From a virus (Duplodnaviria > Caudoviricetes), in the IMG/VR virus record IMGVR_UViG_3300036466_000505, positions 1 to 53,028 of that record: a stretch of DNA of 53,028 nucleotides, one strand, 5' to 3'. Position 1 is the stretch's first letter. Each line of letters begins with the position of its first letter. A program made the position numbers and the translations under genes. The notes beneath the pieces were generated by a model, which was given only the letters and a program-made list of their open reading frames with translations, ran no database searches and was not told the origin of the DNA. Of this stretch, positions 6,410 through 53,028 are shown one piece after another.

Positions 6410-6423
6410 CACGGGAGATCATA

Positions 6424-7614: not shown

Positions 7615-7645
7615 CAGCAGGCCCCTTAACGGCCGGGAGTTGTGT

Positions 7646-21693: not shown

Positions 21694-22426
21694 TTATTTC
21701 TCCTATCGGAAGCTTAAGATGTCTGTCTTCTTCTGCAAATCTTGCTTCAAGATCATGAACTGTCACATAATCCTTGAAACCTCGATTATGTTCCGGCCCT
21801 GCCGAATCCCATTCGAGCATTTTACTCCAAAGGTCAGGGAAATGTTTTCTTACCTTTTTCAATTCCCCGAGTCGTTGCAGGGGACAACAAAAACAGGAAA
21901 CCCTTTTAAATATTCCATACAGCCCCCCCCAGTCGAAACCGTGTTTCTGACAAATGTTAAGGGCGGTAGGCTCGTCAATATTCCACTCGACAAGTGGGTA
22001 TCGTCGCAAGTTTTTTGGATGATACTTTATCCGGTGTGCTTCGTCTGCGGCAATACCGATGCAAGAGACTGGGCTTTCAATGCCTTTGCAATATTTAATT
22101 ATGGCCCCAACTTTTTGACGTGTACACCATCTTCTCATAGGAGAGGGCCATCCATTGCCTATGCGGTGAACTTTGCCCTTTAGCGGCCCTTTTCTGGCAA
22201 CGACTTCACGCTCGAACATCCAATAAGTAAACGGTCTTTTTGGTTTTAATACTGTGATTTTCAAGCCAGTATAATCTTCAAATTTTTCCCAGTGGTCGTA
22301 CATTTGTGGAAATTCCCATCCCGTATCAAATGCAACCAGGGAATGGATTGGCTCTCCTTTTTCGAGCATAAGGAGAGCCATCGCCGTGGAGTCTTTGCCT
22401 CCGGAAAAAGAAATTACGTTATTCAT
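21581..22426 (-). CDS. PAPS reductase-family (CysH/DndC-like) protein
   Basis: [10 protein letters not shown]-loop, [19 protein letters not shown]. Confidence 0.88.
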
Positions 22427-28453: not shown

Positions 28454-28557
28454 TTTCCGATTCCCGCGAGCGGGGCCGACTCGGGACTGCAGGCACGGGC
28501 ATCGCGTCCCTCGGTATGCAGTCTGATAGGATATCGGTCCATGACAACCTCCTTTTG

Positions 28558-28580
28558 GGGCCCGGGTTCCGGGCCCTTTG
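28558..28580 (+). terminator. tR1-like hairpin after the cro-like gene
   Basis: GGGCCCGG-gtt-CCGGGCCC followed by TTT. Confidence 0.55.
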
Positions 28581-28627
28581 TGTATCTATCGGGCTTTTGT
28601 AAACCATATAATACGCGGAGAACAGAA

Positions 28628-29293
28628 ATGAAAGTGGTTCACCAGAAAGTTTCGGTTTTATGGTGTCCGCCGATCCCGCTGGAGCGGATCGAGGAGGCGG
28701 GGCGGACATCGTATCTGAGCCAGGACAAGATGACGGACGGATCGGCCAAAAAGTTTACAGACCGGCTGGTTCGGCTCGGGCACGACTCTGTTTTGGAACA
28801 TGTGTCCATGTCGCTGCATTTTTTGACAAATATCGGCGTGGGGCGGGAGCTTTTACGGCACAGGCATACGTCCCCGACAGAGCAGTCCACCCGGTACGTC
28901 AATTTTTCCGGCCGGGAGATGCGCTTTATCGAGCCTGTCTGGTGGGATGAATGGTCGGCCGAAGAACAGGCAATCTGGACCTGGCAGATGGTCGAGGCCG
29001 AAAAAGCGTATCGTCGATTGATCAAAGCCGGGAGTTCGCCCCAGAAAGCCCGGGAGGTGCTGCCGCTGGCTCTGGCTACAGAAATTGCGTTGACCGCAAA
29101 CCTTCGGGAGTGGCGGCACATTTTTGCACTGCGGGCGCTGGGCACCACGGGGAAACCGCACCCGCAGATGCAGGCGCTTATGGCTCAGGCGTTGGATATG
29201 TGCGCCGCGCTGGTGCCGGTGGTTTTTGACGACCTGGTGGCCGCGGCCCGTATTGCCGGGCTGCTGCCGATCGGCGGGGAGGCTCCATGCTGA
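28628..29293 (+). CDS. thyX: Flavin-dependent thymidylate synthase
   Basis: GHDSVLEH; RELLRHR-x7-STRY (RHRx7S motif); NLREWRH. Confidence 0.95.
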   Translation: MKVVHQKVSVLWCPPIPLERIEEAGRTSYLSQDKMTDGSAKKFTDRLVRLGHDSVLEHVSMSLHFLTNIGVGRELLRHRHTSPTEQSTRYVNFSGREMRFIEPVWWDEWSAEEQAIWTWQMVEAEKAYRRLIKAGSSPQKAREVLPLALATEIALTANLREWRHIFALRALGTTGKPHPQMQALMAQALDMCAALVPVVFDDLVAAARIAGLLPIGGEAPC

Positions 29294-30865: not shown

Positions 30866-31465
30866 ATGTTGATCATAGGAATATCCGGCAAGATAGGCAC
30901 CGGCAAAACCGAGCTGACAAAACTACTGATGGAGCGGCTGGGCAAAGGCTGTGCGCGCCTGGCGTTCGGGGACGCGCTCAAGCGGGAATGCGCAGAGCGA
31001 TACAACTTTGACCTGGCGTTGTGTTACTCCCAGGAGGGCAAGCTGAAACACCTTCTGCACCCGGACCTCCCTGGCGGCTGTATGCAGGTCCGGGAGATCC
31101 TGCAGTGGCACGGGCAGAAAAGGAGACGCGAGCACCCCGGGTACTGGGTCGGAAGATGGGCGGCCCTGCTCCAGGAGCTGCCGGACGACACCACGTGTCT
31201 GTTTGTAGACGACGTGCGGTATCCGGACGAAAAAAACGCGGTGGAGCATCGGCATGGGTTTTGCGTGCGCCTGAACCCGTGGCCGGGCTGGGTGCCGGGA
31301 CCGTATGCCGGCCATGAGAGCGAGACAGCGCTGGACGCCTATGCATGGCACGAGTGGGCGGAACATCCGACTCGGACACAGGACGACCTTTTGCTCCTGG
31401 CTGACCGCGTGGAAAAGACGGCGAGGGAATGGGAGGAAACGCAGGGGTGGGGGTTTGTAGACTGA
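30866..31465 (+). CDS. Deoxynucleoside monophosphate kinase-like protein
   Basis: IGISGKIGTGK, AFGDALK, REILQ, DDVRYPDE, HESETALD. Confidence 0.88.
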   Translation: MLIIGISGKIGTGKTELTKLLMERLGKGCARLAFGDALKRECAERYNFDLALCYSQEGKLKHLLHPDLPGGCMQVREILQWHGQKRRREHPGYWVGRWAALLQELPDDTTCLFVDDVRYPDEKNAVEHRHGFCVRLNPWPGWVPGPYAGHESETALDAYAWHEWAEHPTRTQDDLLLLADRVEKTAREWEETQGWGFVD

Positions 31466-35464: not shown

Positions 35465-36034
35465 ATGGCAGGACAGACGATTGGCTACATCAGGGTCAGT
35501 TCAGTGGACCAGCACTTGGACAGACAGGAAGAATCATTAGCGCAGGTGTCTCCGGACCGGGTTTTTTCGGATAAAGCCAGCGGTAAAGATGCAAAGCGCC
35601 CAGGGCTGCAAGAATGCCTTGGGTATTTGCGGTCCGGAGACACCTGGGTTGTACACTCGATCGATCGGGCGGCCAGAAGTCTCCAGGACCTGCAGGCCAT
35701 AGTTCAGGACCTCACGGCCCGGGGCGTGACGGTCCGGTTTATCAAAGAGGGGCTGACCTTTTCCCCTGACGGAGCTGGCGCAGCCATGGACAAACTGCTG
35801 TTTCAGGTGCTCGGGGCTTTCGCCGAGTTCGAAAGATCGCTGATCAAAGAGCGGCAGGCCGAGGGGATCAAGGCGGCCAAGGCCAAGGGCACCAGGTTCG
35901 GCCGCACTCCGTCGCTTTCTTCGGAGCAGCTCCAGGAGGTCAAGGACCGAGCAGCAGCAGGCGAGACGCACACAGCCATCGCCAAGAGCCTGGGCGTCAG
36001 CCGCCAGACCGTCTGGAGAGCAGCCAAAGCATGA
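35465..36034 (+). CDS. Small serine recombinase (resolvase/invertase family)
   Basis: GYIRVSS, SGK, DRAARS, AEFERSLIKERQAEG, C-terminal HTH; SD AAGGAGG. Confidence 0.96.
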   Translation: MAGQTIGYIRVSSVDQHLDRQEESLAQVSPDRVFSDKASGKDAKRPGLQECLGYLRSGDTWVVHSIDRAARSLQDLQAIVQDLTARGVTVRFIKEGLTFSPDGAGAAMDKLLFQVLGAFAEFERSLIKERQAEGIKAAKAKGTRFGRTPSLSSEQLQEVKDRAAAGETHTAIAKSLGVSRQTVWRAAKA

Positions 36035-36318: not shown

Positions 36319-36401
36319 CCCCAAAGTTGAGGCGAAAGAGAGAAGGCAGCGGCCCAGGGCTGTGGGCGACGGTCGTAAAAAAACAATCGAGGCGACAGGC
36401 A

Positions 36402-37979
36402 ATGGCGAAAACGAAAGGGGATCTGTTCTCCGACTTCCTGAACAAAGTGCAGTCCAAGGTGCCTGTGCAGGAGCAGGCCCCTGGCGGGGTTGGAGAGTGG
36501 GCAATCCAGGCCGGCATCCAGCTGGACCGGGGGCGGTTCAGTTTTCGCAAGCACGAGTTCATGGAAAAGCCGTATGCCGACAATCATCCGTTCCAGGTAG
36601 AGATGAAGTGCACGCAGACCGGCAACTCCACCCGCGCGTTTCTGCGTAAGTTCTGGGCCGGGCTATACATGCCGTTTGTCGGGCTGATGTACCTGTTTCC
36701 GTCCAAGACCGGTTCCGGCGATTTCTCCAAGTCTCGTATTTCGCCGTTTGTCGAGCGTAATCCGGAAACCATCGGCAAATACATTCAGGACACGGACAGC
36801 GTGAGTCTGAAGCGGATTAAGGGGAAGAACTTCTACTTTCGCGGCACCCAGTCCACGGAAGGATTGAGGTCTGACCCTGTTGACTTCATGACGTTCGACG
36901 AATTTGACCTCTTCCCGAAAGGCATTGAAACAGTTGCCCGGGAACGTATGGCCCACTCAGATTACAAGTGGCAGCACTACCTGAGCAACCCGCTTTTGCC
37001 CGACCGCGGCATACACAAGCTGATACAGCAGACAGACGAGCAGCACTGGATGCTGAAGTGCCCCAAATGCGGCAAGTTCACCTGCCTGTCGGACACCGTG
37101 TCTGACGACGATATCGGGTGTCTGGCGGAATGGTCGGACGGCCGCGTGACCCTGCTGTGTACCCATTGCCGGGATGCGGAACTCAATCCTGCCGTTGGAG
37201 AGTGGGTGGCCAAACGGCCCAGCGTGACCGAGCGGCGAGGGTACTGCTACACCCAGCTGTTCAGCCAGTACGTGACCCCGGCCGAGATCCTGCACGCATT
37301 TCGGAACGACCCAAACCGAGCAGGCGTGATGAACTACAAGCTGGGCCTGCCGTATGTCGAGGCCGAGAACCGGCTTTCCATCGAGGAGATTTTGAAGCTG
37401 TGCGGCACGGCAGGAATTTCGTCCAGCGATCCGGGGCCGTGCTGGATGGGGGTTGACCAGGGAAAAGGACTGCATGTGGTGATTGGCCGGCTGCATCCCG
37501 ACAGGGTGGTGTATGTGGCCGAACTGAAGGAGTGGGATGAACTGGATCGGCTCATGGATCAGTTCAATATCCTACGGGCCGTAGTGGATGCCATGCCGGA
37601 ACGTCGCAATGCCCGGGCATTTGCAGACCGGTTCCCGGGAAAGGTGTTCGTGAACTATTACAACGAGCACGCCAGGGACGGCGCGGCCTGGAACGAAGGC
37701 AAGATGGTTGTGTCGTCCAACCGAACCGAGTCCATGGACGAATCCCACCGGCTGCTTCTGAAGGGGCTGATGGGGCTGCCCAAGGACTGCGACGCCGTGC
37801 GTGAATTCGCCGAGCACTGCCATAATGTGGCTAAAAAGCTCGAAGAGAAAGAGGACGGCAGCAAGCGATACGTGTACGTGAAGCTGGGCGCAGACCATTA
37901 CCGCCACGCCTTCAACTACGCGGTACTGGCCAGATCGGCCATGGTGAATTCATATTTCGGAGAAGGGGACTTATCATGA
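36402..37979 (+). CDS. terL: Terminase large subunit (GpA-like)
   Basis: MKCTQTG Walker A variant, FDEFD, CPKC/CTHC zinc ribbon, LGLPY, MGVDQG, DHYRHA. Confidence 0.88.
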   Translation: MAKTKGDLFSDFLNKVQSKVPVQEQAPGGVGEWAIQAGIQLDRGRFSFRKHEFMEKPYADNHPFQVEMKCTQTGNSTRAFLRKFWAGLYMPFVGLMYLFPSKTGSGDFSKSRISPFVERNPETIGKYIQDTDSVSLKRIKGKNFYFRGTQSTEGLRSDPVDFMTFDEFDLFPKGIETVARERMAHSDYKWQHYLSNPLLPDRGIHKLIQQTDEQHWMLKCPKCGKFTCLSDTVSDDDIGCLAEWSDGRVTLLCTHCRDAELNPAVGEWVAKRPSVTERRGYCYTQLFSQYVTPAEILHAFRNDPNRAGVMNYKLGLPYVEAENRLSIEEILKLCGTAGISSSDPGPCWMGVDQGKGLHVVIGRLHPDRVVYVAELKEWDELDRLMDQFNILRAVVDAMPERRNARAFADRFPGKVFVNYYNEHARDGAAWNEGKMVVSSNRTESMDESHRLLLKGLMGLPKDCDAVREFAEHCHNVAKKLEEKEDGSKRYVYVKLGADHYRHAFNYAVLARSAMVNSYFGEGDLS

Positions 37980-41556: not shown

Positions 41557-41638
41557 TGACGGCGGAATCTGTCTTGACCGACACAACACCACGCTGCTCG
41601 GCAGTTACATACAAGCACTGGAATCCGGATACCCATGA
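41363..41638 (+). CDS. Putative o-spanin-like lipoprotein (start uncertain)
   Basis: Signal-like [13 protein letters not shown] with lipobox LTS-C; Pro-rich. Confidence 0.5.
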   Translation: MMFSHSSHAWRAHSWPGQKRRRSSGKPISWRKILLAGFAVIFLTSCTPTMMVKPPKPTLTILERDDGGICLDRHNTTLLGSYIQALESGYP

Positions 41639-43569
41639 GTGACACCGTACAGAACATCGGCCGTCTTTTTGCGGCGGAGTTTGAAACCGCTCGTAACGCC
41701 AGGCGCAATCACGAGCAGCGCTGGCTGGACGACCTGCGCGATTACCGCGGCCAGTATGACGAAGCCACGCTGGCCCGACTGGAAAAATCCGGCGGTTCAC
41801 GCCTGTATATCCGGCTCACCAAGCAAAAGGTCAAGACTGTTCTGGCACGACTGATGGATCTGCTGTTCCCGGCCAACGGGGAAAAGAACTGGGGGATCCA
41901 GCCCACGCCCGACCCGGAGCTGCCGCCGGAACAGGTGGCCATGTTTGCCCAGCAGTTCATAGCCCAGACCGGTCAGCCGCCCGGACCCATGGAAACGCAG
42001 CAGTACGTGCGCGAGACCGTCACTAAAGCGGCTGAAGCCATGGGGAAGACCATCGAGGATCAGCTGGCCGAAACCCCTCAGAAGACCGGGTACCGGCAGG
42101 AGATCAAGAAGGTCATCAAGTCCGGACTGGTGTATGGAACCGGCATCCTCAAGGGCCCCCTGGTGACGCGGGCCAGACGACAGGCGTGGGTGCCTGACCC
42201 GGCCACTGGTCAGTTCCGGCTCCAGGAAGTGAAGGGCGACCTGCAGCCGTATTTTGAGTTCGTGCCGATCTGGGACGTGTATCCGGAACCCGAAGCCACG
42301 GAAGTACGGAACTGCCGGTATATCTGGCACGACCACCTGCAGACCAAAGCCGAAGTACTGGACGTGTGCGTGCAGGAACAGATGTTCGACGAGGACCTGG
42401 TGCGCGAATACCTGCGCGACCATCCCGACGGCGACGCCACCATGGAGAACCATGAACAATCTCTGCGCTCCATCGGCGCGGACGAAGCTCCTCGGACCCT
42501 GGACCGCCGATATCGCCTGCATGAGCGATGGGGCATGGTGTCCGCCCGGGACCTGGTCAAGGCGGGCATGGATCTGCCTGATGAGAATGTGGATGAATAT
42601 TTCGCCAATATCTGGCTGCTCGGCGACAAGTGCGTGAAGTGCGTGCTGAATCCCATCGAGGGCGTGCGGTCCTATTTTTATTTCTGGAATTACGACCGGG
42701 ACGAAACCTCGATCTGGGGCGAAGGCATCCCGGCCGATATGCGGGACCCGGCCAAGGGGTTCAACGCCTCCATACGCAAGATGGTGGATTCCTACTCCAT
42801 CTCCGGCCCCATGTTCGGCGTGAACGCCGCAGCCATGGACCCCACCGAAGACCCCCGGGACATCCACGCCAACAAGGCGTTTCTGTTCGAGTCCGCCGAA
42901 GACATCCAGAAGGCTTTGCAGATATGGACCATCCCCGCGTTTATCCAGGACGGGGTGGCCATGACCGGTTTTTTCCAGAATTTTGTGGACGAGGTCACCG
43001 CCCCCCGGTTCATGCAGGGCGACAATCCCACCAAGGGCGCCGGCGGCACTGCCTCGGGGTTGTCCATGCTCATGGGCGCAGTGAACGTGAACCTCAAGGA
43101 TCTGGTCAAAGATTTTGACGACTTCATCACCGCGCCTTTTATCGAGGCACTGTACCACTGGAATATGAACTTCAATCCCCAGCCTGAAACGGCCGGAGAC
43201 TTCGAGGTCGTGGCCCGTGGTTCCACAGCCCTGATGGCGCGGGAGATCCGGGCCCAGCAGCTGATGCAGGCGGCCCAGGTCACGGACTCCCCTCGCTTTC
43301 AGGGCTGGAGCCGGGACGACAAGCTGCTTCGCGAGCTGTTCAAGGCCATGGATGTGGCCGCCACGGACCTGATCAAGACCAAGGAAGAACACCAGGCCGA
43401 GCAGCAGCAGCAGATGGCCCAGCAGGCAGGCATGATTGCCAAGCAGCAGGTCACCGAGACCATGAACGAGATGCGGGCTAGAGGGCTCCAGCCGGAACAG
43501 GCGCTGGTGCAGATGCTCGGACAGAGCGCCCAGGAATTTTTACAGGCCCAGCAGGCCCAGAGGGTGTGA
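41635..43569 (+). CDS. Portal protein
   Basis: 644 aa; YGTGILKGP, WGEGIP, TASGLSMLM, Gln-rich C-terminal barrel. Confidence 0.9.
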   Translation: MSDTVQNIGRLFAAEFETARNARRNHEQRWLDDLRDYRGQYDEATLARLEKSGGSRLYIRLTKQKVKTVLARLMDLLFPANGEKNWGIQPTPDPELPPEQVAMFAQQFIAQTGQPPGPMETQQYVRETVTKAAEAMGKTIEDQLAETPQKTGYRQEIKKVIKSGLVYGTGILKGPLVTRARRQAWVPDPATGQFRLQEVKGDLQPYFEFVPIWDVYPEPEATEVRNCRYIWHDHLQTKAEVLDVCVQEQMFDEDLVREYLRDHPDGDATMENHEQSLRSIGADEAPRTLDRRYRLHERWGMVSARDLVKAGMDLPDENVDEYFANIWLLGDKCVKCVLNPIEGVRSYFYFWNYDRDETSIWGEGIPADMRDPAKGFNASIRKMVDSYSISGPMFGVNAAAMDPTEDPRDIHANKAFLFESAEDIQKALQIWTIPAFIQDGVAMTGFFQNFVDEVTAPRFMQGDNPTKGAGGTASGLSMLMGAVNVNLKDLVKDFDDFITAPFIEALYHWNMNFNPQPETAGDFEVVARGSTALMAREIRAQQLMQAAQVTDSPRFQGWSRDDKLLRELFKAMDVAATDLIKTKEEHQAEQQQQMAQQAGMIAKQQVTETMNEMRARGLQPEQALVQMLGQSAQEFLQAQQAQRV

Positions 43570-44971: not shown

Positions 44972-46009
44972 ATGCCTACCGGAACAACCTCTTACGGGGA
45001 CATTTCCCCTCGTACTGCCGCGTATGTAATCAAGGATTTTCTGGCCGTGGGGCTGCCGTATGTGGTGTTTGAGCCTTTTCTTCAGGCGAAAACCATCCCG
45101 CAGGGCAACTCGAAATCCATTGATTTTCGTCGATACAAGGCCTTGGACGCCACTCCGAATGCCCTGACCGAAGGCGTTACGCCGTCTTCCAAAAAGCTGG
45201 AAGCTGAGGACGTAACAGCCACGCTTGTGCAGTACGGTGATTCCGTCACCCTGACTGACGTGGTGTTGGACACACACGAAGATCCGACCTTGAAAATTGC
45301 CACAGAACGCCTGGGGGAACAGGCAGGGGAAATGATTGAACGGACCCGGTTCGGGGTAATGAAGGCCGGCACGAATGTCTTTTATGCCAACGGGACCACT
45401 CGGTCCGCAGTGAACACGCCACTGACAAGATCTCTCCAGCGCAAGGTTGTCCGGGGGATGAAACGGCAGCGGGCCAAGAAAATTACAAAGGCCCTGAATT
45501 CCACGCCGGCATACGGCACTGTGTCTGTGCCCGCGGCGTTTATCGGGGTCGTGCACCCCGACCTGGAGTCCGACGTTCGGGAGATGGAAGGGTTTAAGGA
45601 TGTGGTCGATTACGGACAGGTTACACCGTACCCTAACGAGATCGGGGAGGTGGAAGGTGTTCGGTATCTACTGACAGACTTGAGTGAGCCGTGGGAAGAT
45701 GCAGGAGGCGTTTTTGACGGGTCGGGCACGGAGATGCTGTCCACCTCCGGAGCCAACGCCGACGTATATCCCGTTATTTATATCGCCCGGGACTGTGCGG
45801 GTACGGTCGCACTGCGCGGGTACGGGCAGAAGAACAATAACGGGAAGATGAAGATGGTCAGTCCCGTCAAGGTAATGGTTGTCAATCCGAAGCCGTCGGA
45901 TTCCGACCGTCTGGCCCAGCGCGGCCATGCGGGTTGGAAGACCTACGCGCAGACTGTTATTTTGAACGATCTCTGGATGGCCCGGGCTGAAGTGGCCGCC
46001 ACCGACTAA
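44972..46009 (+). CDS. Major capsid protein, N4-gp56 family
   Basis: YGDISPRTAA, LTEGVTP, QYGD, EIGEVEGVRY, DRLAQRGHAGWK. Confidence 0.93.
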   Translation: MPTGTTSYGDISPRTAAYVIKDFLAVGLPYVVFEPFLQAKTIPQGNSKSIDFRRYKALDATPNALTEGVTPSSKKLEAEDVTATLVQYGDSVTLTDVVLDTHEDPTLKIATERLGEQAGEMIERTRFGVMKAGTNVFYANGTTRSAVNTPLTRSLQRKVVRGMKRQRAKKITKALNSTPAYGTVSVPAAFIGVVHPDLESDVREMEGFKDVVDYGQVTPYPNEIGEVEGVRYLLTDLSEPWEDAGGVFDGSGTEMLSTSGANADVYPVIYIARDCAGTVALRGYGQKNNNGKMKMVSPVKVMVVNPKPSDSDRLAQRGHAGWKTYAQTVILNDLWMARAEVAATD

Positions 46010-46506: not shown

Positions 46507-47127
46507 ATGGCCACTGCGGCAGAACTGATTTCCAGGGCGTGGACCCTGCTCCTGGATGGCGGCAGCCGGTATACGGAATCGGCCATGCTGGCCAACCTGA
46601 ACGAGGCGATCGTCGAAGCCGTCGCTCTGAAGCCGGATTTGAACCTGATCGAAACGGCCGTCACCCTGGGGTCCGGCCCGCGTCAGGAACTTCCAGCGGA
46701 CGGACTGCTCCTGGAGCGGATCATCCGTAACGAGACAGGGCAGCGCATCGAGATCATCAACCCGGACGTGCTGGCCATGCAGGACCCGGAATGGGGGTCC
46801 AGGACCGGAACAGTGGTCACCCATGCCTGGGCCGACCCGAAAGACCACAAGGTGTTTTACGTGTATCCGGCCGCCGCCGGGGAGCAGATCCGTATTCAGT
46901 ATGCGGCCGGCCCCGATGCCCTGACCGCCACGACAGAGAGTGTGCCCCTGGACGGCACGGCCCACGGCGCCCTGGTGGACTATCTTGTGTACCGGGCGCT
47001 CTCTATTGACGACGATGCCGGCGACAAGGCCACTGCCCAGACCGCATATAAGTCGTTTCTGGCCAAACTGGGCGCCAGGGATTCCCGCGAGGAACATGAC
47101 CGACCCCGGCCCGGAGGTGCCTCATGA
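46507..47127 (+). CDS. Head-tail adaptor-like protein
   Basis: LNEA..E, FYVYP, ALVDYLVYRALS.D motifs. Confidence 0.75.
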   Translation: MATAAELISRAWTLLLDGGSRYTESAMLANLNEAIVEAVALKPDLNLIETAVTLGSGPRQELPADGLLLERIIRNETGQRIEIINPDVLAMQDPEWGSRTGTVVTHAWADPKDHKVFYVYPAAAGEQIRIQYAAGPDALTATTESVPLDGTAHGALVDYLVYRALSIDDDAGDKATAQTAYKSFLAKLGARDSREEHDRPRPGGAS

Positions 47128-47690
47128 CCGCCATTACCGACCTGATTCCGGATATCCGCCTGGAAGTGCCCGGGTGCATCGACCTGACCATCACCCGGGA
47201 GCTTCGAAATGCCGCCCGGGAGTTCTGCGAAAAAACCGGATGCTGGGAGGTCATCCTGGATGATGTCAGCCTGGTCGAAGGGCAGGACACCTATTCGCTT
47301 GTCCTGCCGGGCGAATCCTCTTTGGTATCCATCACGGCCGTGACCCGGGACGGCCAGCCTTTTGACGCCTACCGGCTTCACCTTCCGGATCTGGAACTGG
47401 TCCTGAACCATGTTCCCACGGAAACAGCCGCCCTGTCCGTCACCGCTCTGCTTATGCCCACCCGCACGGCCACCACAGTGCCGGACATTCTGGAACGGGA
47501 TTACTACGACGGCGTGCGGGCCCTGACTCTGTACCGGCTTATGCGCCAGGCCGGCGTGCCGTGGAACAACCCTTCCATGGCCGCGCACTATAAAGCGGAA
47601 GCCAGGCGCCTGATGGGCAGGGCCACGGTCCGGCGGTGGAGGGAACGATCCGGCGAGGCCATGCATGTGCGGCCGCAACCTTTTTTCTGA
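47124..47690 (+). CDS. Second adaptor/tail tubular A-like protein
   Basis: VPGC...AAREFCEKT..W; LYRLM....PW.NP..A. Confidence 0.7.
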   Translation: MTAITDLIPDIRLEVPGCIDLTITRELRNAAREFCEKTGCWEVILDDVSLVEGQDTYSLVLPGESSLVSITAVTRDGQPFDAYRLHLPDLELVLNHVPTETAALSVTALLMPTRTATTVPDILERDYYDGVRALTLYRLMRQAGVPWNNPSMAAHYKAEARRLMGRATVRRWRERSGEAMHVRPQPFF

Positions 47691-47702
47691 CGGGGAAACG
47701 CA

Positions 47703-47999
47703 ATGAAATCAACAAAAACCATCACTGCCGGGGATGACTACCTGGATTTTACAGTGTTTGGCAGGAACGCCGTTTCCGGCATAACCGACGGCCCCGGCAC
47801 CTTTGAAATCGCCGTATCCGGGCGCGTTACATCCACGATTCGCCTTTATGCCCAGATCGACGGCCAGTGGGTGCAGGACAGCGTGATCGCTCAGGACGGC
47901 GTACATCCCGGCACTGTGGCGACGACGCGCAAGTACCGGATCGGGTGTCCTGTCGCCGACTATGAGGGCGAAACTATCTACATCGAGGTGGCCCAATGA
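47703..47999 (+). CDS. Hypothetical beta-rich virion protein
   Basis: 98-aa ORF in the tail operon. Confidence 0.65.
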   Translation: MKSTKTITAGDDYLDFTVFGRNAVSGITDGPGTFEIAVSGRVTSTIRLYAQIDGQWVQDSVIAQDGVHPGTVATTRKYRIGCPVADYEGETIYIEVAQ

Positions 48000-48166
48000 G
48001 CGTCCTTTCTTCCGGCGGCGGCAGTGGTGCGGAACAGCAATTCGTCCTTGAGGTTGAAGAGGCGCTTACGACGACATCCGCCCTCAACGACTCCAATTTA
48101 GGATTGCTCGATTACCTGTATAGAACCATTTTACGATATCATCTTACCGAAGCGGGAGTGATCTGA
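47996..48166 (+). CDS. Small 56-aa protein (not in the ORF track)
   Basis: MSVLSSGGGSGAEQQF...; overlaps both neighbours (ATGA and TGATG). Confidence 0.6.
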   Translation: MSVLSSGGGSGAEQQFVLEVEEALTTTSALNDSNLGLLDYLYRTILRYHLTEAGVI

Positions 48167-49728
48167 TGGCAGTCATCAATAACCTTGTACTGGCCCGAAA
48201 CGCGGACAACACCATTCAGGTGGACACTGCGTATTATGACCTGAACACAAAAGCGGGGGCGTTGGTCGACGACCTGGTCACGTTCCTGCAAGCGGCCGTA
48301 TCGGATGTGGATGCGTATGTACCCGGGCGCGTGGATGCGTTGTTTGACCAGGAATTGGGCAGTACGGTCTATACCCAGGGCGAAATTGACGCCATGCTGG
48401 AACGGGTCAATGAAACCACCCTTGCATCGCTTGGTGCGCAGGGAGCAATGTACGACCCTGTGTCGGATTCCTGGACCGCGCTCGGCGGCGACGTAAACGA
48501 GTGGCAGAACCTCTTTCGCGGGTACGTGTACAACCGATCTGATGAAGTGGTCTATTTCCTGAACCCCACGGACTGGTCGTACAAATACGCATGGGAGTAC
48601 GACGCAAACCTGCCCTATGCCACAGGCGCATACTGCACCCTGTCCGGAACCACATACAAAGCACTCCAGTCCGCCAAAGGCAAAGACCCTGCAACAGAGA
48701 CCACGTACTGGACCGTTACCGCAGACACCCCGGAGTCCATTCTGGCCAGCACGGACGGGACGGACGGCGCTGTAGGTGTGCTGGTGCCTGCCGGGTATAC
48801 AGCCAGATATACTCGTTCCGGGAAGTCCTATTTCTGGTGCTCTCTTGCACCGTTGCCTGGTCTGGCACTCGACCCGGCATTTCTGCCCGGAGGTATCCCG
48901 GTGACCCACCGGACCTTCGGGGCGTATGAATCCATTCTGTATGATGATTCCGCGTCTGCCTACATAGACGGCACCGGTGATTCCGACGCCACCTCGCTTG
49001 TTGATCTGGGCAACGATTACCTTGCTCCGGTGTCCGGGAAAAAGCCGTGGACAGGGCTGACCAGAGCGGAGAACCGCGCACTGCACAGCAACTTTTCCAC
49101 CAAGGCCCATCTTCAGGACTACATTTTCCGCAACGATCTGCTCCGGCACCTCTTTGTATGCGAACACAGAACGTGGGATAGCGAATCCGTTATTCCCGGG
49201 CATTGTGACGATTCTTATGATTATGCAAACGTATCCGTCACCGGCCTGACAGACTACCTCGGAAACGGATCGGGTTCGTACAAGCCTGATACGTTATATT
49301 TGGCGAACCGGTATCGCGGCATTGAAAATCCCTTTGGGGATGTGTGGGAGTTTGTGGACGGGATCAACTTTAATGACTGGAAACCGTACATAACCAGAGA
49401 TCCGCACGGTTGCGCGGACGACGTGGACGACACCAACAGCTCGTATGCCTATGTGAGGGCATCCGACGAAAACGGAAATGTCATTACTTGCCCGGACTCC
49501 AGCAACTACCAGAAATTCCTGTGGCCGGGGACGTTTTTGCCGCAGTCTGTCGGAGGTGCCAGCTCCACCTATATCACCGATCCCTGGTACCAGAACCCCG
49601 GCTGGCGGGTCCTGCGGGTGGGCGGCCGTTTGAGCAGTGGTCGTCAGGCGGGGCTCGGGTATCTGAGTGCGTATAGCGCTTCCACGTATGCGAATTGGAA
49701 TTTCGGGGGGCGGGCTGCCCTCGCTTAA
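48166..49728 (+). CDS. DGR target protein: putative receptor-binding tail protein with a CBM5/12-like motif and C-terminal CLec-type fold
   Basis: YRGIENPFGDVWEFVDG motif; C-terminal VR ending in GGR; Y..GAYCTLSGTTYKAL...P...YW motif. Confidence 0.9.
   Translation: MAVINNLVLARNADNTIQVDTAYYDLNTKAGALVDDLVTFLQAAVSDVDAYVPGRVDALFDQELGSTVYTQGEIDAMLERVNETTLASLGAQGAMYDPVSDSWTALGGDVNEWQNLFRGYVYNRSDEVVYFLNPTDWSYKYAWEYDANLPYATGAYCTLSGTTYKALQSAKGKDPATETTYWTVTADTPESILASTDGTDGAVGVLVPAGYTARYTRSGKSYFWCSLAPLPGLALDPAFLPGGIPVTHRTFGAYESILYDDSASAYIDGTGDSDATSLVDLGNDYLAPVSGKKPWTGLTRAENRALHSNFSTKAHLQDYIFRNDLLRHLFVCEHRTWDSESVIPGHCDDSYDYANVSVTGLTDYLGNGSGSYKPDTLYLANRYRGIENPFGDVWEFVDGINFNDWKPYITRDPHGCADDVDDTNSSYAYVRASDENGNVITCPDSSNYQKFLWPGTFLPQSVGGASSTYITDPWYQNPGWRVLRVGGRLSSGRQAGLGYLSAYSASTYANWNFGGRAALA
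49601..49720 (+). repeat. DGR variable repeat (VR)
   Basis: 120-bp ungapped match to TR with 18 mismatches. Confidence 0.97.
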
Positions 49729-49854
49729 AACGCAGCGCGGCGGAACCGCTGGACGAAGGCACGAAGGCACGCGGTACGCAAACCGCAAAACGCAACGCGA
49801 AACGCTTGCCTTCGCTCTACCTCATGGTTAAACAGTTCTCAGGCAAACGCGGAA

Positions 49855-49974
49855 GCTGGCAGGTCCTGCAAGTGGGCGGCAATTTGAACAATGGTCGTAA
49901 AGCAGGGCTCGGGTATCTGAATGCGAATAACGATTCCACGAATGCGAATTGGAATATCAGGGGGCAGGCTGCCC
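49855..49974 (+). repeat. DGR template repeat (TR)
   Basis: Every mismatch to VR is at a TR adenine; nine in-frame AAY codons. Confidence 0.97.
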
Positions 49975-50093
49975 ATGCTTCTGCATAAAAAATCAACCCC
50001 GCGTTTGCCTTGGCTCTTGCCAAAAAATAACAGTTTCATCCCTTGCGCGTTGGTAGGGCAACCGAAAACGACCGGGAGCAGAAGCGAGAAAAA

Positions 50094-51152
50094 GTGAAGC
50101 GACACGGAAATCTGTATCCGAAAATCATTGAAGTTGAAAACATTCTTCTTGCACATAGAAAGGCGCGCCTTGGAAAGGCACATTATCTTGACGTGCAGAT
50201 GGTTAACCAAAACGAGCACGAACACTGCACAAGAATACATGACATTCTGAAGAAAAAAGAGTATTCTGACATTGGTTACAAGGTCAGACATATTCAGGAC
50301 ATGGGGAAGACGAGGACTATCTACGTACTCGACTACTACCCGCACCGGATCATTCAGTGGGCCATGGCTCTTGAGCTGGTGCCGATCTGGAAGCCGACGC
50401 TGATTACAGACACTTATTCCAGTATCGATGGGCGCGGCCTGCACGACGCGGCCAAGCGGGTAAGAAAGTGGATGCACGACCGGGACGCCTGCCGGCACTG
50501 TCTGAAAATGGACGTGCGGCACTTTTACCCGAGCGTAGATCACGATGTGATGAAGTCTATTCTGCGTCGCAAGATCAAATGCAAAGACACGCTCTGGCTA
50601 CTGGACCTGATTATCGACTCTGCCCCGGGCCTGCCCATCGGGAACTACCTGTCACAATATCTGGGCAATGTGTATCTGGCAGGGTTGGACCACTGGATGA
50701 AGCAGGAGATCGAAGCACGGCATTACATGCGTTACTGCGACGATCTGGTTGTGTTCATGTCCGACAAGAAGGAGCTGCACGACCTGCGGTGCCGGGTGGA
50801 TGAAAAGCTGGCAGCGCTGAAGTTGGAGATGAAAGGGAACCACCAGGTGTTTCCGGCGTATGAGCGCGGGGTGGACTTTATGGGGTACCGGTTTTTTGGG
50901 TCTCACGTGCTGGTCCGCAAGTCCATCAAGCAGGCGTTTAAGAAACGGGTCAGGTACATCAAGCGGCACGGCCATCGCCTTCCACCCAGGCAGGTCATTA
51001 ATCCGCTGATGAGTTATTACGGCTGGCTGAAGCACTGCGACGCCAGAAACCTTTGGAACACTTACATCGATAGTGACGTTCGCATGGTCGTGGCGTCTGC
51101 GGCCAGACGGGCAAATATGAAAAACCCAATGGAGAACATCTCATGGCAGTAA
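50094..51152 (+). CDS. DGR reverse transcriptase
   Basis: MKRHGNLY start (GTG 50094; track start 50043), LKMDVRHFYPS, GLPIGNYLSQ, YMRYCDD, GVDFMGY. Confidence 0.97.
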   Translation: MKRHGNLYPKIIEVENILLAHRKARLGKAHYLDVQMVNQNEHEHCTRIHDILKKKEYSDIGYKVRHIQDMGKTRTIYVLDYYPHRIIQWAMALELVPIWKPTLITDTYSSIDGRGLHDAAKRVRKWMHDRDACRHCLKMDVRHFYPSVDHDVMKSILRRKIKCKDTLWLLDLIIDSAPGLPIGNYLSQYLGNVYLAGLDHWMKQEIEARHYMRYCDDLVVFMSDKKELHDLRCRVDEKLAALKLEMKGNHQVFPAYERGVDFMGYRFFGSHVLVRKSIKQAFKKRVRYIKRHGHRLPPRQVINPLMSYYGWLKHCDARNLWNTYIDSDVRMVVASAARRANMKNPMENISWQ

Positions 51153-51481
51153 GAATCTGCAATCAGACAGAGGCCCCGGCCCGTGCGTTTCGGCACGGCA
51201 CTAATGTGATCGTCACTCGCAACGTCACCGAGAAAACAGACGACGAGGGCAATGTGTCGTATGACTTCGAGGCCTACACCCTGCCTGCCGCCCCCTTGCC
51301 CGATCCGGACCAGTATTGTTTGGACAACTATGCTGCCATTCGAGAAGCGGTCATCCTGGCGCATTGGCCCCAGAAGGCGCAGAACGAGGCGGCCATGGAA
51401 GATGCCATGGGCAGGCCGGAGAAGCTGGCCGAGTACATCGCGTTCAAGGACGCGCTGGACGAGGAGTTTCCCAAGCCGTGA
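51143..51481 (+). CDS. Hypothetical protein coupled to the RT (candidate DGR accessory or fibre chaperone)
   Basis: SD GGAG; overlaps the RT stop by 10 nt. Confidence 0.75.
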   Translation: MAVRICNQTEAPARAFRHGTNVIVTRNVTEKTDDEGNVSYDFEAYTLPAAPLPDPDQYCLDNYAAIREAVILAHWPQKAQNEAAMEDAMGRPEKLAEYIAFKDALDEEFPKP

Positions 51482-51783
51482 TGCACAGATTCTCCGAGTT
51501 CGCGGAAGAGGAAGGGCCGCTTGCAGGAGACAAGGTGCGGATCGAGGACCTGTTGGGCCGGGATATCGAAATTCTGGCCTATCGCCTCGGTCCGTCGCGG
51601 TACCCGGACAAGTCAGAAAGCGGAAAATACCTGCAACTGCAATTCCGCTTTTCCGACGAAGACGCTCTACGGTGCATGTTTACCGGCTCAGGTGTGTTGA
51701 TTCGACAACTGGAAAAATACCACGACAAAATACCGTTTCTGGCCTCGATCGAGCGTCGGGGACGGTGTTTTACGTTTGTATGA
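51481..51783 (+). CDS. Conserved hypothetical 100-aa protein (candidate DGR accessory)
   Basis: MHRFSEF...GDKVRIEDLL...LQLQF...FTGSGVLIRQL...PF; TGATG overlap; SD GAGGAG. Confidence 0.75.
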   Translation: MHRFSEFAEEEGPLAGDKVRIEDLLGRDIEILAYRLGPSRYPDKSESGKYLQLQFRFSDEDALRCMFTGSGVLIRQLEKYHDKIPFLASIERRGRCFTFV

Positions 51784-52163
51784 AAAAAATACCAAGCACC
51801 GAACTCCGCGCCGTCCTGCGCTCTGCGTGGCCGGAAGCGGATATCCGGCTCCCGGACAAGTCCTACATTCTGCCGACAAGGCACCGGATATGGGACGAGC
51901 TGGTTTCCAGCTACTTTGAGGACTACACCTATCAGGCCGACATTCTGGACTGCGACGACTATGCTCTGCTGCTGCACGCCTGGATCAGGCAACAGCAGTA
52001 CCGGGAACAGTGGCCCAACCCCCTTGCTTTTGGCGAGGCATGGAGCAGAACACATGCACTCAACATCGTTGTATTGGACGACAAGACTGTGCGCCTGGTG
52101 GAACCCCAGACGGACGGCTTTGTTGCTCCTGACGATCACGATATTATTTTTATCCGGATGTAA
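51780..52163 (+). CDS. Papain/transglutaminase-like protein (MOA lectin C-terminal-like)
   Basis: DCDDYA...HALN...VEPQ, a Cys-His-Glu arrangement; ATGA overlap. Confidence 0.7.
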   Translation: MKKIPSTELRAVLRSAWPEADIRLPDKSYILPTRHRIWDELVSSYFEDYTYQADILDCDDYALLLHAWIRQQQYREQWPNPLAFGEAWSRTHALNIVVLDDKTVRLVEPQTDGFVAPDDHDIIFIRM

Positions 52164-52202
52164 CGCACACCACAACTGGCCCATCACCAACGGACCGTAC
52201 CA

Positions 52203-53028
52203 ATGAAAATCCAATTCCAGAATCCCCAGGGAATGCGCCCACGTCTCCGCCCGGATAAACTGCCGGACAACTACGCGCAAACAGCCACGGATTGCGACTT
52301 TCGGTCCGGGGTGCTGGCTCCCGTACCCGGCTCGCTCGAGGTCAAGTCCCTCCCCAAGCCGGGCACCCTTCGCACGCTGTACAAGCACGGTTCCCGGTTT
52401 CTGGCCTTTCCCGGCAACGTGGATGTCATTGAATCGCCGATTGCCGACGCGGATGGCCGTTTTGCCTGGACAGGCGGGGGCAAGCCCATGCAGTCCAACG
52501 ACACCATGGCCTTTGCTGCCGGGTACCCGGAGTCGGGTTGGCCCGCCATCACCAGGACGCTCGGCGTGCCGTATCCGGCCGCCCCGCTGACCATTGCGCT
52601 GTCCGGCACGGCAGGCGACGAGGTCGAGCACTCCTACTCCTACTGCTACACATACGTCACAGAATGGGGTGAAGAGTCGGCAAACTCCCTCCCCACCGGC
52701 CTGACCGATATCTATGCAGGCCAGACCGTTACGCTGACCGGGTTCACCGTGCCGAGCGTGTCCGGCCTGGTTGTCGACAAATTCCGGATTTATCGCTCGG
52801 AAGCCACTTCTTCCGGGGGCGCTGTCTGGGAACTGGTGGCCGAAGTGGAGGAAACCACTTCGGAATGGGAGGACACAGCCGCAAGCGCCCTGGACGATAC
52901 CCTGGATACCGAGACCTGGATACCGGCCCCGGACGATATGCAGGGGCTTATTCTGACGTCAGGCGGAATCGCCGTGGGGTTTTCGGGTAAAGAACTGTAT
53001 CTGTCCGAGCCGTTTGTCATGTATGCCT
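52203..53028 (+). CDS. Tail tubular/stabilisation-type protein, 5' part (continues through the junction to 918; about 538 aa in total)
   Basis: ATG at 52203 (MKIQFQNPQGMRPRLRPDKLP...YCYTYVTEWGEES) is in frame with ORF 37..918 across the terminal repeat. Motifs are typical of podophage tail tube B-like proteins. Confidence 0.75.
   Translation, partial: MKIQFQNPQGMRPRLRPDKLPDNYAQTATDCDFRSGVLAPVPGSLEVKSLPKPGTLRTLYKHGSRFLAFPGNVDVIESPIADADGRFAWTGGGKPMQSNDTMAFAAGYPESGWPAITRTLGVPYPAAPLTIALSGTAGDEVEHSYSYCYTYVTEWGEESANSLPTGLTDIYAGQTVTLTGFTVPSVSGLVVDKFRIYRSEATSSGGAVWELVAEVEETTSEWEDTAASALDDTLDTETWIPAPDDMQGLILTSGGIAVGFSGKELYLSEPFVMYA
52902..53028. repeat. Terminal direct repeat (circular assembly overlap), copy 2
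   Basis: Identical to 1-127. Confidence 0.97.

Follow-up and report, generated by a model that had tools for sequence, protein, structure and literature searches.

[quoted passage not shown] The preliminary description had proposed a complete, apparently functional DGR, a reading that is supported by the A-only substitution pattern, the RT, the predicted fold of the target and the existence of two alleles of the variable repeat (VR). The repeat pair and the two genes that define the element are as follows.

48166..49728, + strand: target gene, an ORF of 520 aa
49601..49726, + strand: VR, spanning the final 42 codons of the target (49601-49720 in the preliminary description)
49704..49726, + strand: candidate IMH, made up of 16 nt of only G and C (49704-49719) and the 7 nt that follow
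49855..49980, + strand: TR, from repeat search and mismatch count (49855-49974 in the preliminary description)
50094..51152, + strand: DGR reverse transcriptase, 352 aa from GTG 50094 (VKRHGNLY...)

Repeat pair and reverse transcriptase

A repeat search found a single direct repeat, 49601-49726 and 49855-49980, with 84% identity and a spacing of 254, and no further copies exist in the whole genome. The preliminary description had reported a gapless 120-bp alignment with 18 mismatches, all at TR adenines, and our recount was identical. Over 49601-49720 and 49855-49974, an ungapped count gives 18 mismatches in 120 positions, each at a TR adenine (12 A>G, 3 A>C, 3 A>T). The TR contains 31 A, 40 G, 25 C and 24 T over this span, and the probability that all 18 mismatches would fall on A by chance is 1.9e-13 (hypergeometric). 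The altered share of TR adenines, 18 of 31 (58%), can be set beside the 51.6% measured for BPP-1 in vitro (PMC7826257). Read in the VR frame, the TR has nine AAY codons and one AAA codon. Homology extends 6 nt past the 120-nt span, to 49726 and 49980, and brings two additional mismatches: a TR adenine at 49975 that is T in the VR, and one non-A difference, T49976 in the TR against C49722 in the VR. Over 126 nt, 19 of 20 mismatches are therefore at TR adenines. The last 23 nt of the VR differ from their TR counterpart at four positions (TR A, A, A and T) and are alike in both VR alleles described below; by analogy with BPP-1, this segment may be an IMH with a non-identical IMH* in the TR, which would fit the description in PMC5758913. 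A 97-aa ORF at 49695-49988 was rejected as a gene, being the TR read in the VR frame.

The RT frame is open across 50043-51152, from TTG 50043, with GTG 50094 as the probable start. An intact RT with the motifs GNYLSQ and YCDD had been described previously, and both the ORF and its translation confirm this; 16 related RTs all keep IGNYLSQ and YCDD unchanged. The protein matches Pfam PF00078 (5.8e-16) and phrog_1423 (2.7e-104), as well as 154 phage records that include Bordetella phages and DGR RTs of crAss-like phages. Its closest solved structure is 8ub7_A (E 3e-38), which we take to be the BPP-1 bRT, its 328-aa length being equal to that of the brt CDS; direct comparison with BPP-1 brt gives 30.1% identity (2e-32). 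Kinship with group II intron or retron RTs had been named as the outcome that would speak against a DGR, and these are more distant, with GsI-IIC the best group II intron RT at 5.1e-15 and a chain named 'retron-type' at 8.4e-10. On these sequence comparisons, the [I/V/L]GxxxSQ motif and a closer match to bRT than to the RTs of group II introns and retrons place the enzyme in the DGR clade.

Target protein and its natural variants

The N-terminal ~190 aa of the target are specific to this phage, and residues ~190-520 form a widespread CLec-type variable-protein module, to which 1599 representatives match at E<=1e-3. The protein matches phrog_5302 'tail protein' (3e-50). No Pfam match was found, including to any tail-fibre domain, and phmmer against PDB sequences returned nothing at E<=1. 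The structure was predicted with AF2 (pLDDT 84.6). The model matches TaqVP, the variable protein of a Thermus aquaticus DGR (5vf4_A), with a Foldseek E of 3.3e-10, and this is also the top structural match at Z 26.5, with an rmsd of 3.1 Å over 272 residues and a superposition of model residues 115-520 on chain residues 17-380. Lower Z scores were obtained for TvpA (12.6), FGE (about 11.5) and Mtd (about 11.3 to 11.5). TaqVP shares 20% sequence identity with the target and belongs to a bacterium rather than to a phage tail. The C-terminal domain of the target is accordingly predicted by modelling to adopt a C-type-lectin (CLec)/FGE-like fold that carries the VR at its end, in line with the CLec fold anticipated by the preliminary description, and its nearest neighbour is a solved DGR variable protein.

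Natural variation of the VR is observed. A second member of the target cluster, P0121, from another contig of 6,615 b, is identical at 509 of 520 residues; residues 1-487 are identical and all 11 differences lie within residues 488-513, inside the VR. Ten of these 11 changes are attainable from the TR codon by A-only change. In one metagenome run (X1), which may be the sample of origin of the genome, contigs break at the VR: 47000-49626 and 49703-52000 are each present with 0 differences, and two 136-nt contigs span the gap, one identical to the genome (depth 10) and the other with 17 differences (depth 6.4). One of these 17 appears to affect a thymine of the TR (residue 499, TAT to GGT), as deduced from the protein and a tally of change types rather than from the contig letters, and it counts against strict A-mutagenesis because A-only mutagenesis does not yield this change. 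Little of the stretch is present in runs X3 to X8, and X3 and X4 each have two short identical pieces. All runs consist of assembled contigs rather than raw reads, so the two alleles come without frequencies. The preliminary description had suggested searching reads for VR variation confined to TR-A positions, and the two natural alleles, with residue differences confined to the VR and mostly A-reachable, bear this out. It had also argued for recent activity from the lack of non-A mismatches; the activity stands, directly supported by two co-existing VR alleles between identical flanks, and the argument itself is weaker than the alleles.

Three other readings of the cassette can be weighed against these data. 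The repeat pair could have arisen by plain duplication, with later divergence through point mutation or recombination and no reverse transcription involved. Nothing but the presence of a repeat speaks for this, and the data already contradict it: all 18 mismatches fall on A of one copy, a DGR-type RT begins 113 nt past the TR copy, and all 49 related loci analysed show A-biased TR/VR pairs, which leaves this reading a negligible probability. The element could also be a fossil, once active, with old VR/TR differences and a target that is no longer diversified. Indeed, current activity cannot be read from the window alone, and the two alleles share the same substitution at nine TR-A positions, which may be read as old and fixed. 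We nevertheless regard a fossil as very improbable, given alleles that differ at 17 nt in 136 nt between letter-identical flanks of 2.6 kb and 2.3 kb in one run, allele proteins that are identical up to the VR, an intact RT frame with invariant catalytic motifs and no non-A mismatch in 120 nt. More weight, though still well short of an even chance, goes to a target that is diversified but binds something other than the host receptor, as a protein for another ligand, a decoration or a secondary adhesin, so that host range would not be switched. The missing Pfam tail-fibre domain is consistent with this, as is the gene's position between head-tail adaptor-type genes and the RT, away from the J-like fibre gene (915-3569), and CLec-fold DGR targets have many roles (PMC5758913). 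Against it stand the phrog_5302 match, the closest cultured relative, whose gene is annotated 'putative tail fiber protein' and likewise has TR and RT downstream, and the related RT cassettes of crAss-like phages, which act on a tail-collar fibre (PMC7290462). From the PHROG label, the relative's depositor annotation, the gene position and the fold, we infer that an active DGR here diversifies a tail receptor-binding protein, and VR diversification would then allow receptor switching.

RNA elements around the template repeat

The TR lies 126 nt past the target stop and is followed by a spacer of ~115 nt before the RT. The following elements were identified in and around it.

49737..49814, + strand: candidate DNA hairpins downstream of VR, 49737-49749 (4-bp GC stem) and 49762-49779/49797-49814 (18-nt arms, 83% complementary)
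49841..49852, + strand: 5' arm of TR-closing duplex (AGGCAAACGCGG), 12 nt, 100% complementary to 49999-50010
49999..50010, + strand: 3' arm of TR-closing duplex, starting 18 nt past the end of TR homology
50006..50092, + strand: RT-17-like spacer RNA (hairpin, A-rich single strand, distal stem), ending at the RT start
50011..50031, + strand: hairpin UGGC-UCUU-GCCA and then an A-rich run, abutting the duplex, from an alignment of 34 spacers

The 12-bp duplex that would close the TR was attained in 0 of 1000 shuffles. Relatives form helices at this position from sequences that are unrelated: 15 of 34 spacers place a helix of at least 9 bp directly against the hairpin, and in 20 of 34 the helix is reached by 10 or fewer of 200 shuffles. 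The hairpin itself shows compensatory changes at four of four pairs in the 34-spacer alignment, and for the RT-17-like spacer 93.8% of cells pair against 63.4% in shuffles, a value that none of 500 shuffles reached. The inner hairpin of the distal stem is GNRA-capped. The distal stem of the window is shifted relative to the consensus, and at two pairs the window sequence is the row that does not pair. The spacer gives a full-length match to positions 1-95 of Rfam RT-17 (RF03020), hairpin, A-rich stretch and UGGUAG...CGAA stem included, at 27 bits and E 0.0095; it falls below the gathering score of 40.4 and is not a member by Rfam's rule, and the TR-closing duplex is partly outside the model. 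At the same place, the gathering score is attained in 6 of 20 loci scanned. A single-sequence fold of TR plus spacer was no better than shuffles (z -0.62), and the same holds for a fold of 49700-49860 (z -0.57), which covers the hairpins downstream of the VR; these hairpins are weak candidates for DNA elements. A promoter scan gave nothing above expectation. A 4-bp hairpin, AUGC/GCAU, is also present at 49975-49986, and, as a guess, it would be compatible with a cDNA start at ~49974, just 5' of the non-A mismatch.

Comparison with BPP-1 places these elements in context. The 'cPRT Stop' of BPP-1 (bioRxiv 10.1101/2023.10.23.563531) consists of a duplex flanking the TR, a short hairpin and adenosines, the same as found here, and by this likeness the window RNA resembles the cPRT-Stop type and may function similarly. 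There are also differences. In BPP-1, the TR end and the 3' arm are 58 nt apart, a distance that includes a 31-nt Avd-binding stem-loop, Sp3-33, whereas only 18 nt are available in the window, which leaves no room for an Avd-binding hairpin. The stop hairpin has 4 bp and a UCUU loop in the window versus 2 bp and UNCG in BPP-1, and the spacer is RT-17-like in the window versus RT-10 in BPP-1 (PMC5737381). The conservation analysis in the bioRxiv text covered 278 DGRs with Avd homologues.

By analogy with BPP-1, from which the order of steps is taken, TR and spacer would be transcribed as one RNA, and pairing of the sequences just before and after the TR would loop the template shut. The duplex, the stacked short hairpin, the A-rich stretch and the distal RT-17-like stem would then provide a platform from which the RT copies the TR and misreads its adenines. 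The A-mutagenised cDNA would be swapped in for the last ~40 codons of the tail-protein gene, and the ligand-binding face of the CLec-fold domain would be re-drawn with its scaffold unchanged.

Avd-less architecture and a candidate helper

The preliminary description had likened the element to that of BPP-1 (mtd-avd-TR-brt). The likeness holds for the A-specific transfer from TR to VR at the 3' end of a gene for a CLec-fold tail protein and for the [I/V/L]GxxxSQ RT, and fails for the Avd-bearing layout: because the avd gene is missing, the cassette is not wholly BPP-1-like, and it has an OB-fold-like gene downstream. The bAvd profile PF22296 found nothing at E<=1 in the complete genome, in Yersinia phage fEV-1 or in the records of two relatives, and recovered BPP-1 Avd at 2.2e-37 as a positive control. 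A phmmer search with BPP-1 Avd found nothing at E<=10. Searches with PF05635 and TIGR02436 were rejected as evidence because PF05635 missed BPP-1 Avd.

The cassette belongs to a known compact Avd-less target-TR-RT type, a class described in 2017-2020. It shares with Architecture A1/Lineage 3 DGRs (Wu et al. 2018, PMC5758913) the target-VR-TR-RT order, uninterrupted by any accessory gene, the lack of avd and a tail-fibre-type CLec target; in that survey, 26% of DGRs are without avd and 29% have Architecture A. The RT of the lineage-3 crAssphage LMMB (PMC7290462) is 37.7% identical to that of the window, a kinship by identity and not by tree. Among related IMG/VR loci, 50 of 80 have an RT match just downstream of the target, and the target end is 245-375 nt from the RT start in 44 of the 49 loci analysed. 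A blastn search with the cassette as query returned nothing from 50,697 phage records, and single target or RT proteins as queries found no related loci in viral contigs or metagenome contigs. The closest cultured phage with both genes is fEV-1 (LT992259, g27-g29), whose target and RT are 33.7% and 37.8% identical. It has the same compact order, with 25 of 25 TR/VR mismatches at A; no perfect TR-closing helix of at least 7 bp was found there, and its spacer does not reach the RT-17 gathering score.

Two ORFs follow the RT.

51143..51481, + strand: 112-aa acidic ORF, pI 4.6, overlapping the RT stop by 10 nt
51481..51783, + strand: 100-aa OB-fold-like ORF of an RT-linked family (fam2), its ATG overlapping the previous stop (TGATG)

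Kinship of the 112-aa ORF with a target-linked family, fam0, was not established (nothing by hmmsearch, 7% probability by hhalign). Family fam0 was itself rejected as an RT helper, since 16 target-bearing loci that lack an RT match contain it too; in fEV-1, g30 has a fam0 domain and no fam2 was found. The model of the fam2 protein (pLDDT 89.4) has the order b1-b3, helix, b4-b5, with best Z scores of 6.7 (RuvBL2 OB) and 5.8 (SSB), and the Atlas names PF28814 for this fold. The window protein matches no Pfam family at E<=1, and a phi29-type SSB was rejected (PF17427, no match at E<=10). Its pI of 6.1 is not basic; the family mean is 8.1 and that of Avd is 9.6. The only lineage-3a accessory gene named in the text of PMC5758913 is CH1, which is acidic and of 160-169 aa, as opposed to ~98 aa for fam2, and neither fam2 nor fam0 has a match at E<=1 in the LMMB locus. 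A literature search found no paper describing fam2 among those covered, and its motifs were not found in one supplementary file of PMC5758913, which may contain no protein sequences.

The 51481-51783 gene is a candidate substitute for the Avd helper. One may object that it could be a common phage gene with a function such as that of a replication SSB, which accompanies this group of phages and has no role in retrohoming. Its fold matches, to OB folds of the SSB/PriB type, reach a modest Z of 5 to 7, another ORF separates it from the RT in the window, and, among the 39 related DGR loci whose downstream DNA is long enough, 22 lack it; being found in the other 17, fam2 is not universal. Linkage to the RT argues the other way. 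With fam2 alone as query, an RT is present in 78 of the 80 best loci and ends less than 100 nt upstream in 54 of them, and 32 of 33 clusters at 70% identity have an RT. Of the fam2 loci with A-biased TR/VR pairs, 37 of 59 have targets without detectable likeness to that of the window. Across 48 loci, only fam0 and fam2 recur among neighbouring ORFs in more than four, once a set of mostly read-through frames over the TR is put aside. In three loci (L047, L072, L141) fam2 occupies the position that avd has in BPP-1, between target and TR. Natural fusions exist as well: 12 of 15 longer homologues carry PF00078, and one was verified as an in-frame RT-fam2 protein. An ordinary, co-travelling gene therefore seems improbable to us. 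As a helper, fam2 would do the job of Avd, positioning the template-primer duplex and holding the RNA on the RT, and would come in three forms: as a gene directly after the RT, between target and TR, or fused to the RT C-terminus. The window would carry the separate-gene form. For the wider proposal, that in a large Avd-less DGR group a ~100-aa OB-fold-like protein replaces Avd while the RNA has lost the Avd-binding hairpin and kept the TR-closing duplex, we consider the balance to be even.

A complete genome and two natural VR alleles in one sample make this a clean case in which the activity of a DGR could be measured within a subsurface or marine community. The BPP-1 RNA architecture, a duplex-closed template with a stem-loop and adenosines, appears to persist in Avd-less elements from which the Avd-binding hairpin is gone. 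The window also adds an independent example of fam2, a family that nearly always adjoins or is fused to DGR RTs. If fam2 is the missing helper, it would explain how a quarter of DGRs function without Avd, and DGR reverse transcription would have been solved a second time, in a structurally unrelated way. Programmable A-mutagenesis would then need a much smaller tool-kit, and engineered DGR systems could be simplified.

The phage genome and its retroelement

The 53,028-base record is a whole virus genome with direct terminal repeats (127 nt, exact) and a completeness rated at 100%. It carries the gene set of a tailed phage, and the DGR cassette sits within the structural module, where further virion proteins are encoded alongside those listed here.

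Genes outside the cassette (strand where assigned)
36327-37979, large terminase
41635-43569, portal-size connector protein (PHROG label 'head-tail adaptor')
44972-46009, major head protein
46507-47127, SU10-type adaptor (PF24175, 1.6e-23)
915-3569, J-like fibre protein
7640-18046, plus strand, 3,468-aa ORF at the end of the structural module, with a ddrB-like ParB domain (residues 598-730), ResIII/helicase domains (1331-1842) and a methyltransferase-like stretch (1935-2150)
20273-21055, minus strand, ParA-type partition ATPase
21581-23339, minus strand, PAPS-reductase-like gene adjoining a DHH phosphoesterase
28541-29293, thymidylate synthase
30866-31465, dNMP kinase
35465-36034, plus strand, small serine recombinase/invertase

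By its domains, the 3,468-aa product looks like a giant DarB-type protein, which would perhaps be packaged and injected against restriction. The ParA and serine recombinase genes may point to plasmid-like prophage persistence or to an invertible segment carried by the phage; no tyrosine integrase was seen in the phage genome. The PAPS-reductase-like, DHH phosphoesterase, thymidylate synthase and dNMP kinase genes are nucleotide or DNA-modification genes.

Within 47000-53028 a single direct repeat stands out (49601-49726 and 49855-49980, 84% identity), and the whole genome holds no third copy. The preliminary description had placed 18 mismatches over 120 bp, all at adenines of the template repeat (TR), and a recount of the ungapped 120-nt comparison with the variable repeat (VR) agreed to the letter: 18 of 18 mismatches fall at TR adenines, or 18 of the 31 A (A>G 12, A>C 3, A>T 3). 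The chance of 18 random mismatches all hitting 31 A among 120 positions is 1.9e-13. A further 6 nt of homology adds two mismatches, one at an A and one elsewhere (TR AT versus VR TC, 49721-49722). Read in the frame of the target gene, the TR contains nine AAY codons and one AAA codon, and from an AAY codon A-only changes can reach 15 amino acids and no stop.

The 520-aa target has no Pfam match. It matches phrog_5302 ('tail protein', 3e-50) over residues 77-517 and is 33.7% identical over residues 194-516 to g27 of Yersinia phage fEV-1, a 'putative tail fiber protein'. The stretch from about residue 190 to 520 is a module that recurs as the C-terminal part of proteins differing widely in length (1,599 representatives at E<=1e-3). 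In an AlphaFold2 model built from 113 sequences (pLDDT 84.6, and >90 across most of residues 190-520), the Thermus aquaticus DGR variable protein ranks first among solved structures (Foldseek E 3.3e-10; Z 26.5, rmsd 3.1 Å over 272 residues), followed by the Treponema variable protein (Z 12.6), formylglycine-generating enzymes (about 11.5) and Mtd, the BPP-1 variable protein (about 11.3 to 11.5). The predicted structure, with a DGR variable protein as its best match, thus bears out the CLec-type fold expected of the target C-terminus. Its labels, gene position and fold suggest that the target binds the host receptor.

The reverse transcriptase (RT) frame spans 50043-51152, with GTG at 50094 (VKRHGNLY...) as the most likely start, giving 352 aa that match PF00078 (5.8e-16) and phrog_1423 (2.7e-104). 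Its earlier assignment as DGR-type holds, since its closest kinship is with neither group II intron nor retron RTs: the best solved structure is 8ub7_A (328 aa) at E 3e-38, versus 5.1e-15 for the best group II intron RT, 8.4e-10 for a 'retron-type' chain and 1.5e-7 for Drt2. The 8ub7 chain is as long as the brt product of BPP-1, and we take it to be the BPP-1 RT (bRT). The RT matched 154 phage records by tblastn, with identities of 44.8% to Psychrobacillus phage Perkons, 37-43% to crAss-like phages, 37.8% to fEV-1 and 30.1% to BPP-1 brt. Across 16 related RTs there is no variation in IGNYLSQ, the catalytic D140 or YCDD.

Similar cassettes recur in related loci. An IMG/VR scan with a profile of the ten closest targets gave 568 confirmed loci, of which 80 were kept, and an RT match (39-52% identical) lies just downstream of the target in 50 of these 80. 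We analysed the 49 with a near-complete RT match from its first residues, leaving out one locus with a partial match. In 44 of the 49, 245-375 nt lie between the end of the target and the RT start. Every one of the 49 has a TR/VR pair whose mismatches fall mainly at A; the smallest share, 6 of 8, comes from a poorly delimited pair of 25 nt. In fEV-1, a cultured phage, the pair (4863-4971 and 5052-5160) has 25 mismatches, every one at a TR adenine. In the fEV-1 record, a 38-aa 'hypothetical protein' (g28) is annotated over most of the TR.

Two alleles of the variable repeat

Current or recent activity had also been proposed, and two independent observations uphold it. The 90% cluster of the target contains a second sequence, from a 6,615-b contig, that shares 509 of 520 residues with that of the window; the 11 that differ all fall within residues 488-513, inside the VR, and 10 of the 11 changes can be reached from the TR codon by adenine-only changes. 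The other comes from X1, a run labelled as a shale gas metagenome and taken as Logan contigs, not reads; it is possibly the source of the genome and may not be independent of it. Its contigs stop at the VR (47000-49626 and 49703-52000, zero differences in each), and two alternative 136-nt contigs span 49597-49732, one identical (depth 10) and the other with 17 differences (depth 6.4). The two observations agree: the tally of these changes (A>C 3, A>G 3, A>T 1, C>A 1, C>G 1, G>A 4, G>C 1, T>A 1, T>G 2) matches one for one the nucleotide changes that the 11 substituted residues of the second protein require, leaving none silent, a correspondence derived from the protein and the tally rather than from contig letters. 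At the level of contigs, then, genomes that are otherwise identical carry two different VR alleles. Because the second target copy varies solely in the VR and X1 carries two VR alleles, we regard the DGR as active.

Among the 17 differences in the second allele, the sole non-adenine one lies at residue 499, where the codon is TAT in both the TR and the window's own VR; the replacement of Tyr499 by Gly calls for a T-to-G change at 49660 (TR 49914). One BPP-1 study put misincorporation at template U at about 0.5%, versus 51.6% at A (PMC7826257). A rare RT error is one possible source of this change, and a later point mutation is another.

Nine TR-A positions carry the identical substitution in both alleles. 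The TR encodes Gln at residues 481, 484 and 516, where both alleles encode Arg, and Arg at residue 514, where both encode Gly (VR 49607, 49616-49617, 49705, 49712; TR 49861, 49870-49871, 49959, 49966). Several of the shared substitutions restore residues that are invariant or nearly so across the target family (R481, G514 and R516, with Q or R in the TR). The sharing could come from selection on the scaffold, or from limits of cDNA transfer at both ends. The TR itself may encode no working protein, with perhaps only A-to-G outcomes surviving at the sites behind these four residues.

A diverged relative was seen in run X2, labelled as a seawater metagenome, when it was aligned to 47000-52000 (pieces 85-99% alike, RT included). 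One X2 contig passes from 49593 straight onto the TR copy, which suggests that the VR of this relative is closer to the TR than to the VR of our phage.

Avd and the RNA around the template repeat

The BPP-1-type accessory protein Avd was sought with profile models. In a six-frame search at E<=1, PF05635 missed BPP-1's own Avd (1830-2216 of its locus), and the PF05635 and TIGR02436 negatives were discarded; 'no Avd' calls that rest on PF05635 alone are unsafe. PF22296 (bAvd) recovered the BPP-1 protein at 2.2e-37 and gave no match at E<=1 in our phage genome, in fEV-1 or in the records of two relatives (one 100% complete). Phmmer with BPP-1 Avd found no match in the six frames of the window. 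The gaps are 126 nt from target stop to TR and 113 nt from TR to RT start, and the cassette is of the known Architecture A1.

A perfect 12-bp inverted repeat brackets the TR (49841-49852 and 49999-50010), a length reached in none of 1000 shuffles. Directly 3′ of its 3′ arm lies the hairpin UGGC-UCUU-GCCA (50011-50022), followed by an A-run. We aligned 34 TR-plus-spacer regions, namely that of the window and those of 33 non-identical relatives with TR >=100 nt, and RNAalifold returned the 50011-50022 hairpin and a distal two-part stem, with compensatory changes in 10 of 10 pairs. The predicted pairs form in 93.8% of cells versus 63.4% in shuffles (0/500) and 21-43% with slid partners, a comparison in which the tested structure is somewhat favoured, having been derived from the same alignment. 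The covariation score is 0.891, versus at most 0.161 with slid partners. At two of the distal pairs the window is the row that does not pair, its stem being shifted. The bracket helix is unalignable across relatives because its sequence differs everywhere; in 15 of the 34 regions, the sequence before the TR can form a helix of at least 9 bp, G-U pairs included, with the bases next to the hairpin. Against 200 shuffles per region, none reach the bracket helix in 14 of the 34, and at most 10 do in 20.

The Rfam RT-17 model matches the window spacer end to end with 27 bits (E 0.0095), below its gathering score of 40.4, which was passed in 6 of 20 loci scanned. Weinberg et al. assign RT-10 to the BPP-1 spacer and speculate that other RT motifs serve DGRs (PMC5737381). 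According to a preprint, the BPP-1 cPRT Stop consists of an 11-bp avd:Sp duplex, a short stem-loop and A-minor adenosines; a single-stranded 'thumb ring' comes next, and then a long RT-binding stem (10.1101/2023.10.23.563531). The duplex, short hairpin and A-run of our phage have an equal arrangement. The distance from TR to 3′ arm differs, at 18 nt here versus 58 nt in BPP-1, where it includes an Avd-binding stem-loop (10.1101/2023.10.23.563531). An RNA without an Avd site in a genome without avd would make a coherent picture.

Small genes downstream of the reverse transcriptase

Clustering of all ORFs of >=60 aa around the cassette, in 48 loci that include the window, left only three families present in more than 4 of the 48, one of them made mostly of frames reading through the TR. 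Another, the acidic fam0 (about 105 aa, pI 4.9; L025 3272-3589 is an example), was recovered by BLAST clustering in 25 of the 48 loci. Its domain also forms part of fEV-1 g30 (6220-6825, 2.8e-15). A profile search places it after the target-type gene in 27 of the 39 DGR loci that have enough downstream DNA, and likewise in 16 loci that have a target gene but no RT match; its association is therefore with the target. It may serve in fibre assembly or as a partner of variable proteins of this class.

ORFs downstream of the RT
51143-51481, ORF with only a faint resemblance to fam0
51481-51783, fam2 gene, its start overlapping the preceding stop and its stop the following start
51780-52163, plus strand, 127-aa ORF, start-stop coupled to the fam2 gene; sub-threshold Agglutinin_C match (7e-5, 23.6 bits versus a cut-off of 26.8)

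The third family, fam2 (about 98 aa), is found in just 17 of the 39 related DGR loci whose downstream DNA is long enough. With fam2 as the sole query, a scan gave 274 confirmed loci. Among the best 80 of these 274, which we examined, a DGR-type RT is present in 78, and in 60 of the 62 with at least 2.5 kb upstream; by cluster, the figures are 51/53 at 90% identity and 32/33 at 70%. In the same 80, the RT ends <100 nt upstream of fam2 in 54 and 100-600 nt upstream in 23, and lies downstream in 1. An A-biased TR/VR pair accompanies 59 of the 62, 37 of these 59 having a target unlike that of the window. In three loci (L047, L072, L141) the fam2 gene lies between target and TR. Among longer proteins with a fam2 domain, 12 of 15 contain PF00078, and in one (P0396) residues 120-438 are an RT 43% identical to that of the window and residues 437-533 are fam2 (hhalign probability 99.7%).

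In the fam2 model (pLDDT 89.4), the secondary-structure elements run strand-strand-strand-helix-strand-strand, as in an OB fold. The model's matches to solved structures are modest and all OB folds (RuvBL2 OB Z 6.7, SSBs 5.8, then PriB), and the best matches in a viral library are parts of RT proteins (4.4e-7, 2e-6), then phage SSBs. An ESM Atlas search gave the same picture and named the Pfam family PF28814. The family comprises at least 1,456 clusters, and among the 120 listed none has a name beyond 'hypothetical' or a Pfam domain. A literature search of titles, abstracts and passages found no description of an RT-linked OB-fold-like family; supplements and preprint tables may list such loci.

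DGRs without avd are themselves known. Wu et al. 2018 report that avd is absent from 26% of DGRs, that 29% are without an accessory gene, and that 'Lineage 3' is without avd (PMC5758913), and crAssphage LMMB has been described as an Avd-less example (PMC7290462). The element studied here is a real, active DGR and a new member of this described Avd-less class, and its RT-linked OB-fold-like gene goes beyond the class as described.
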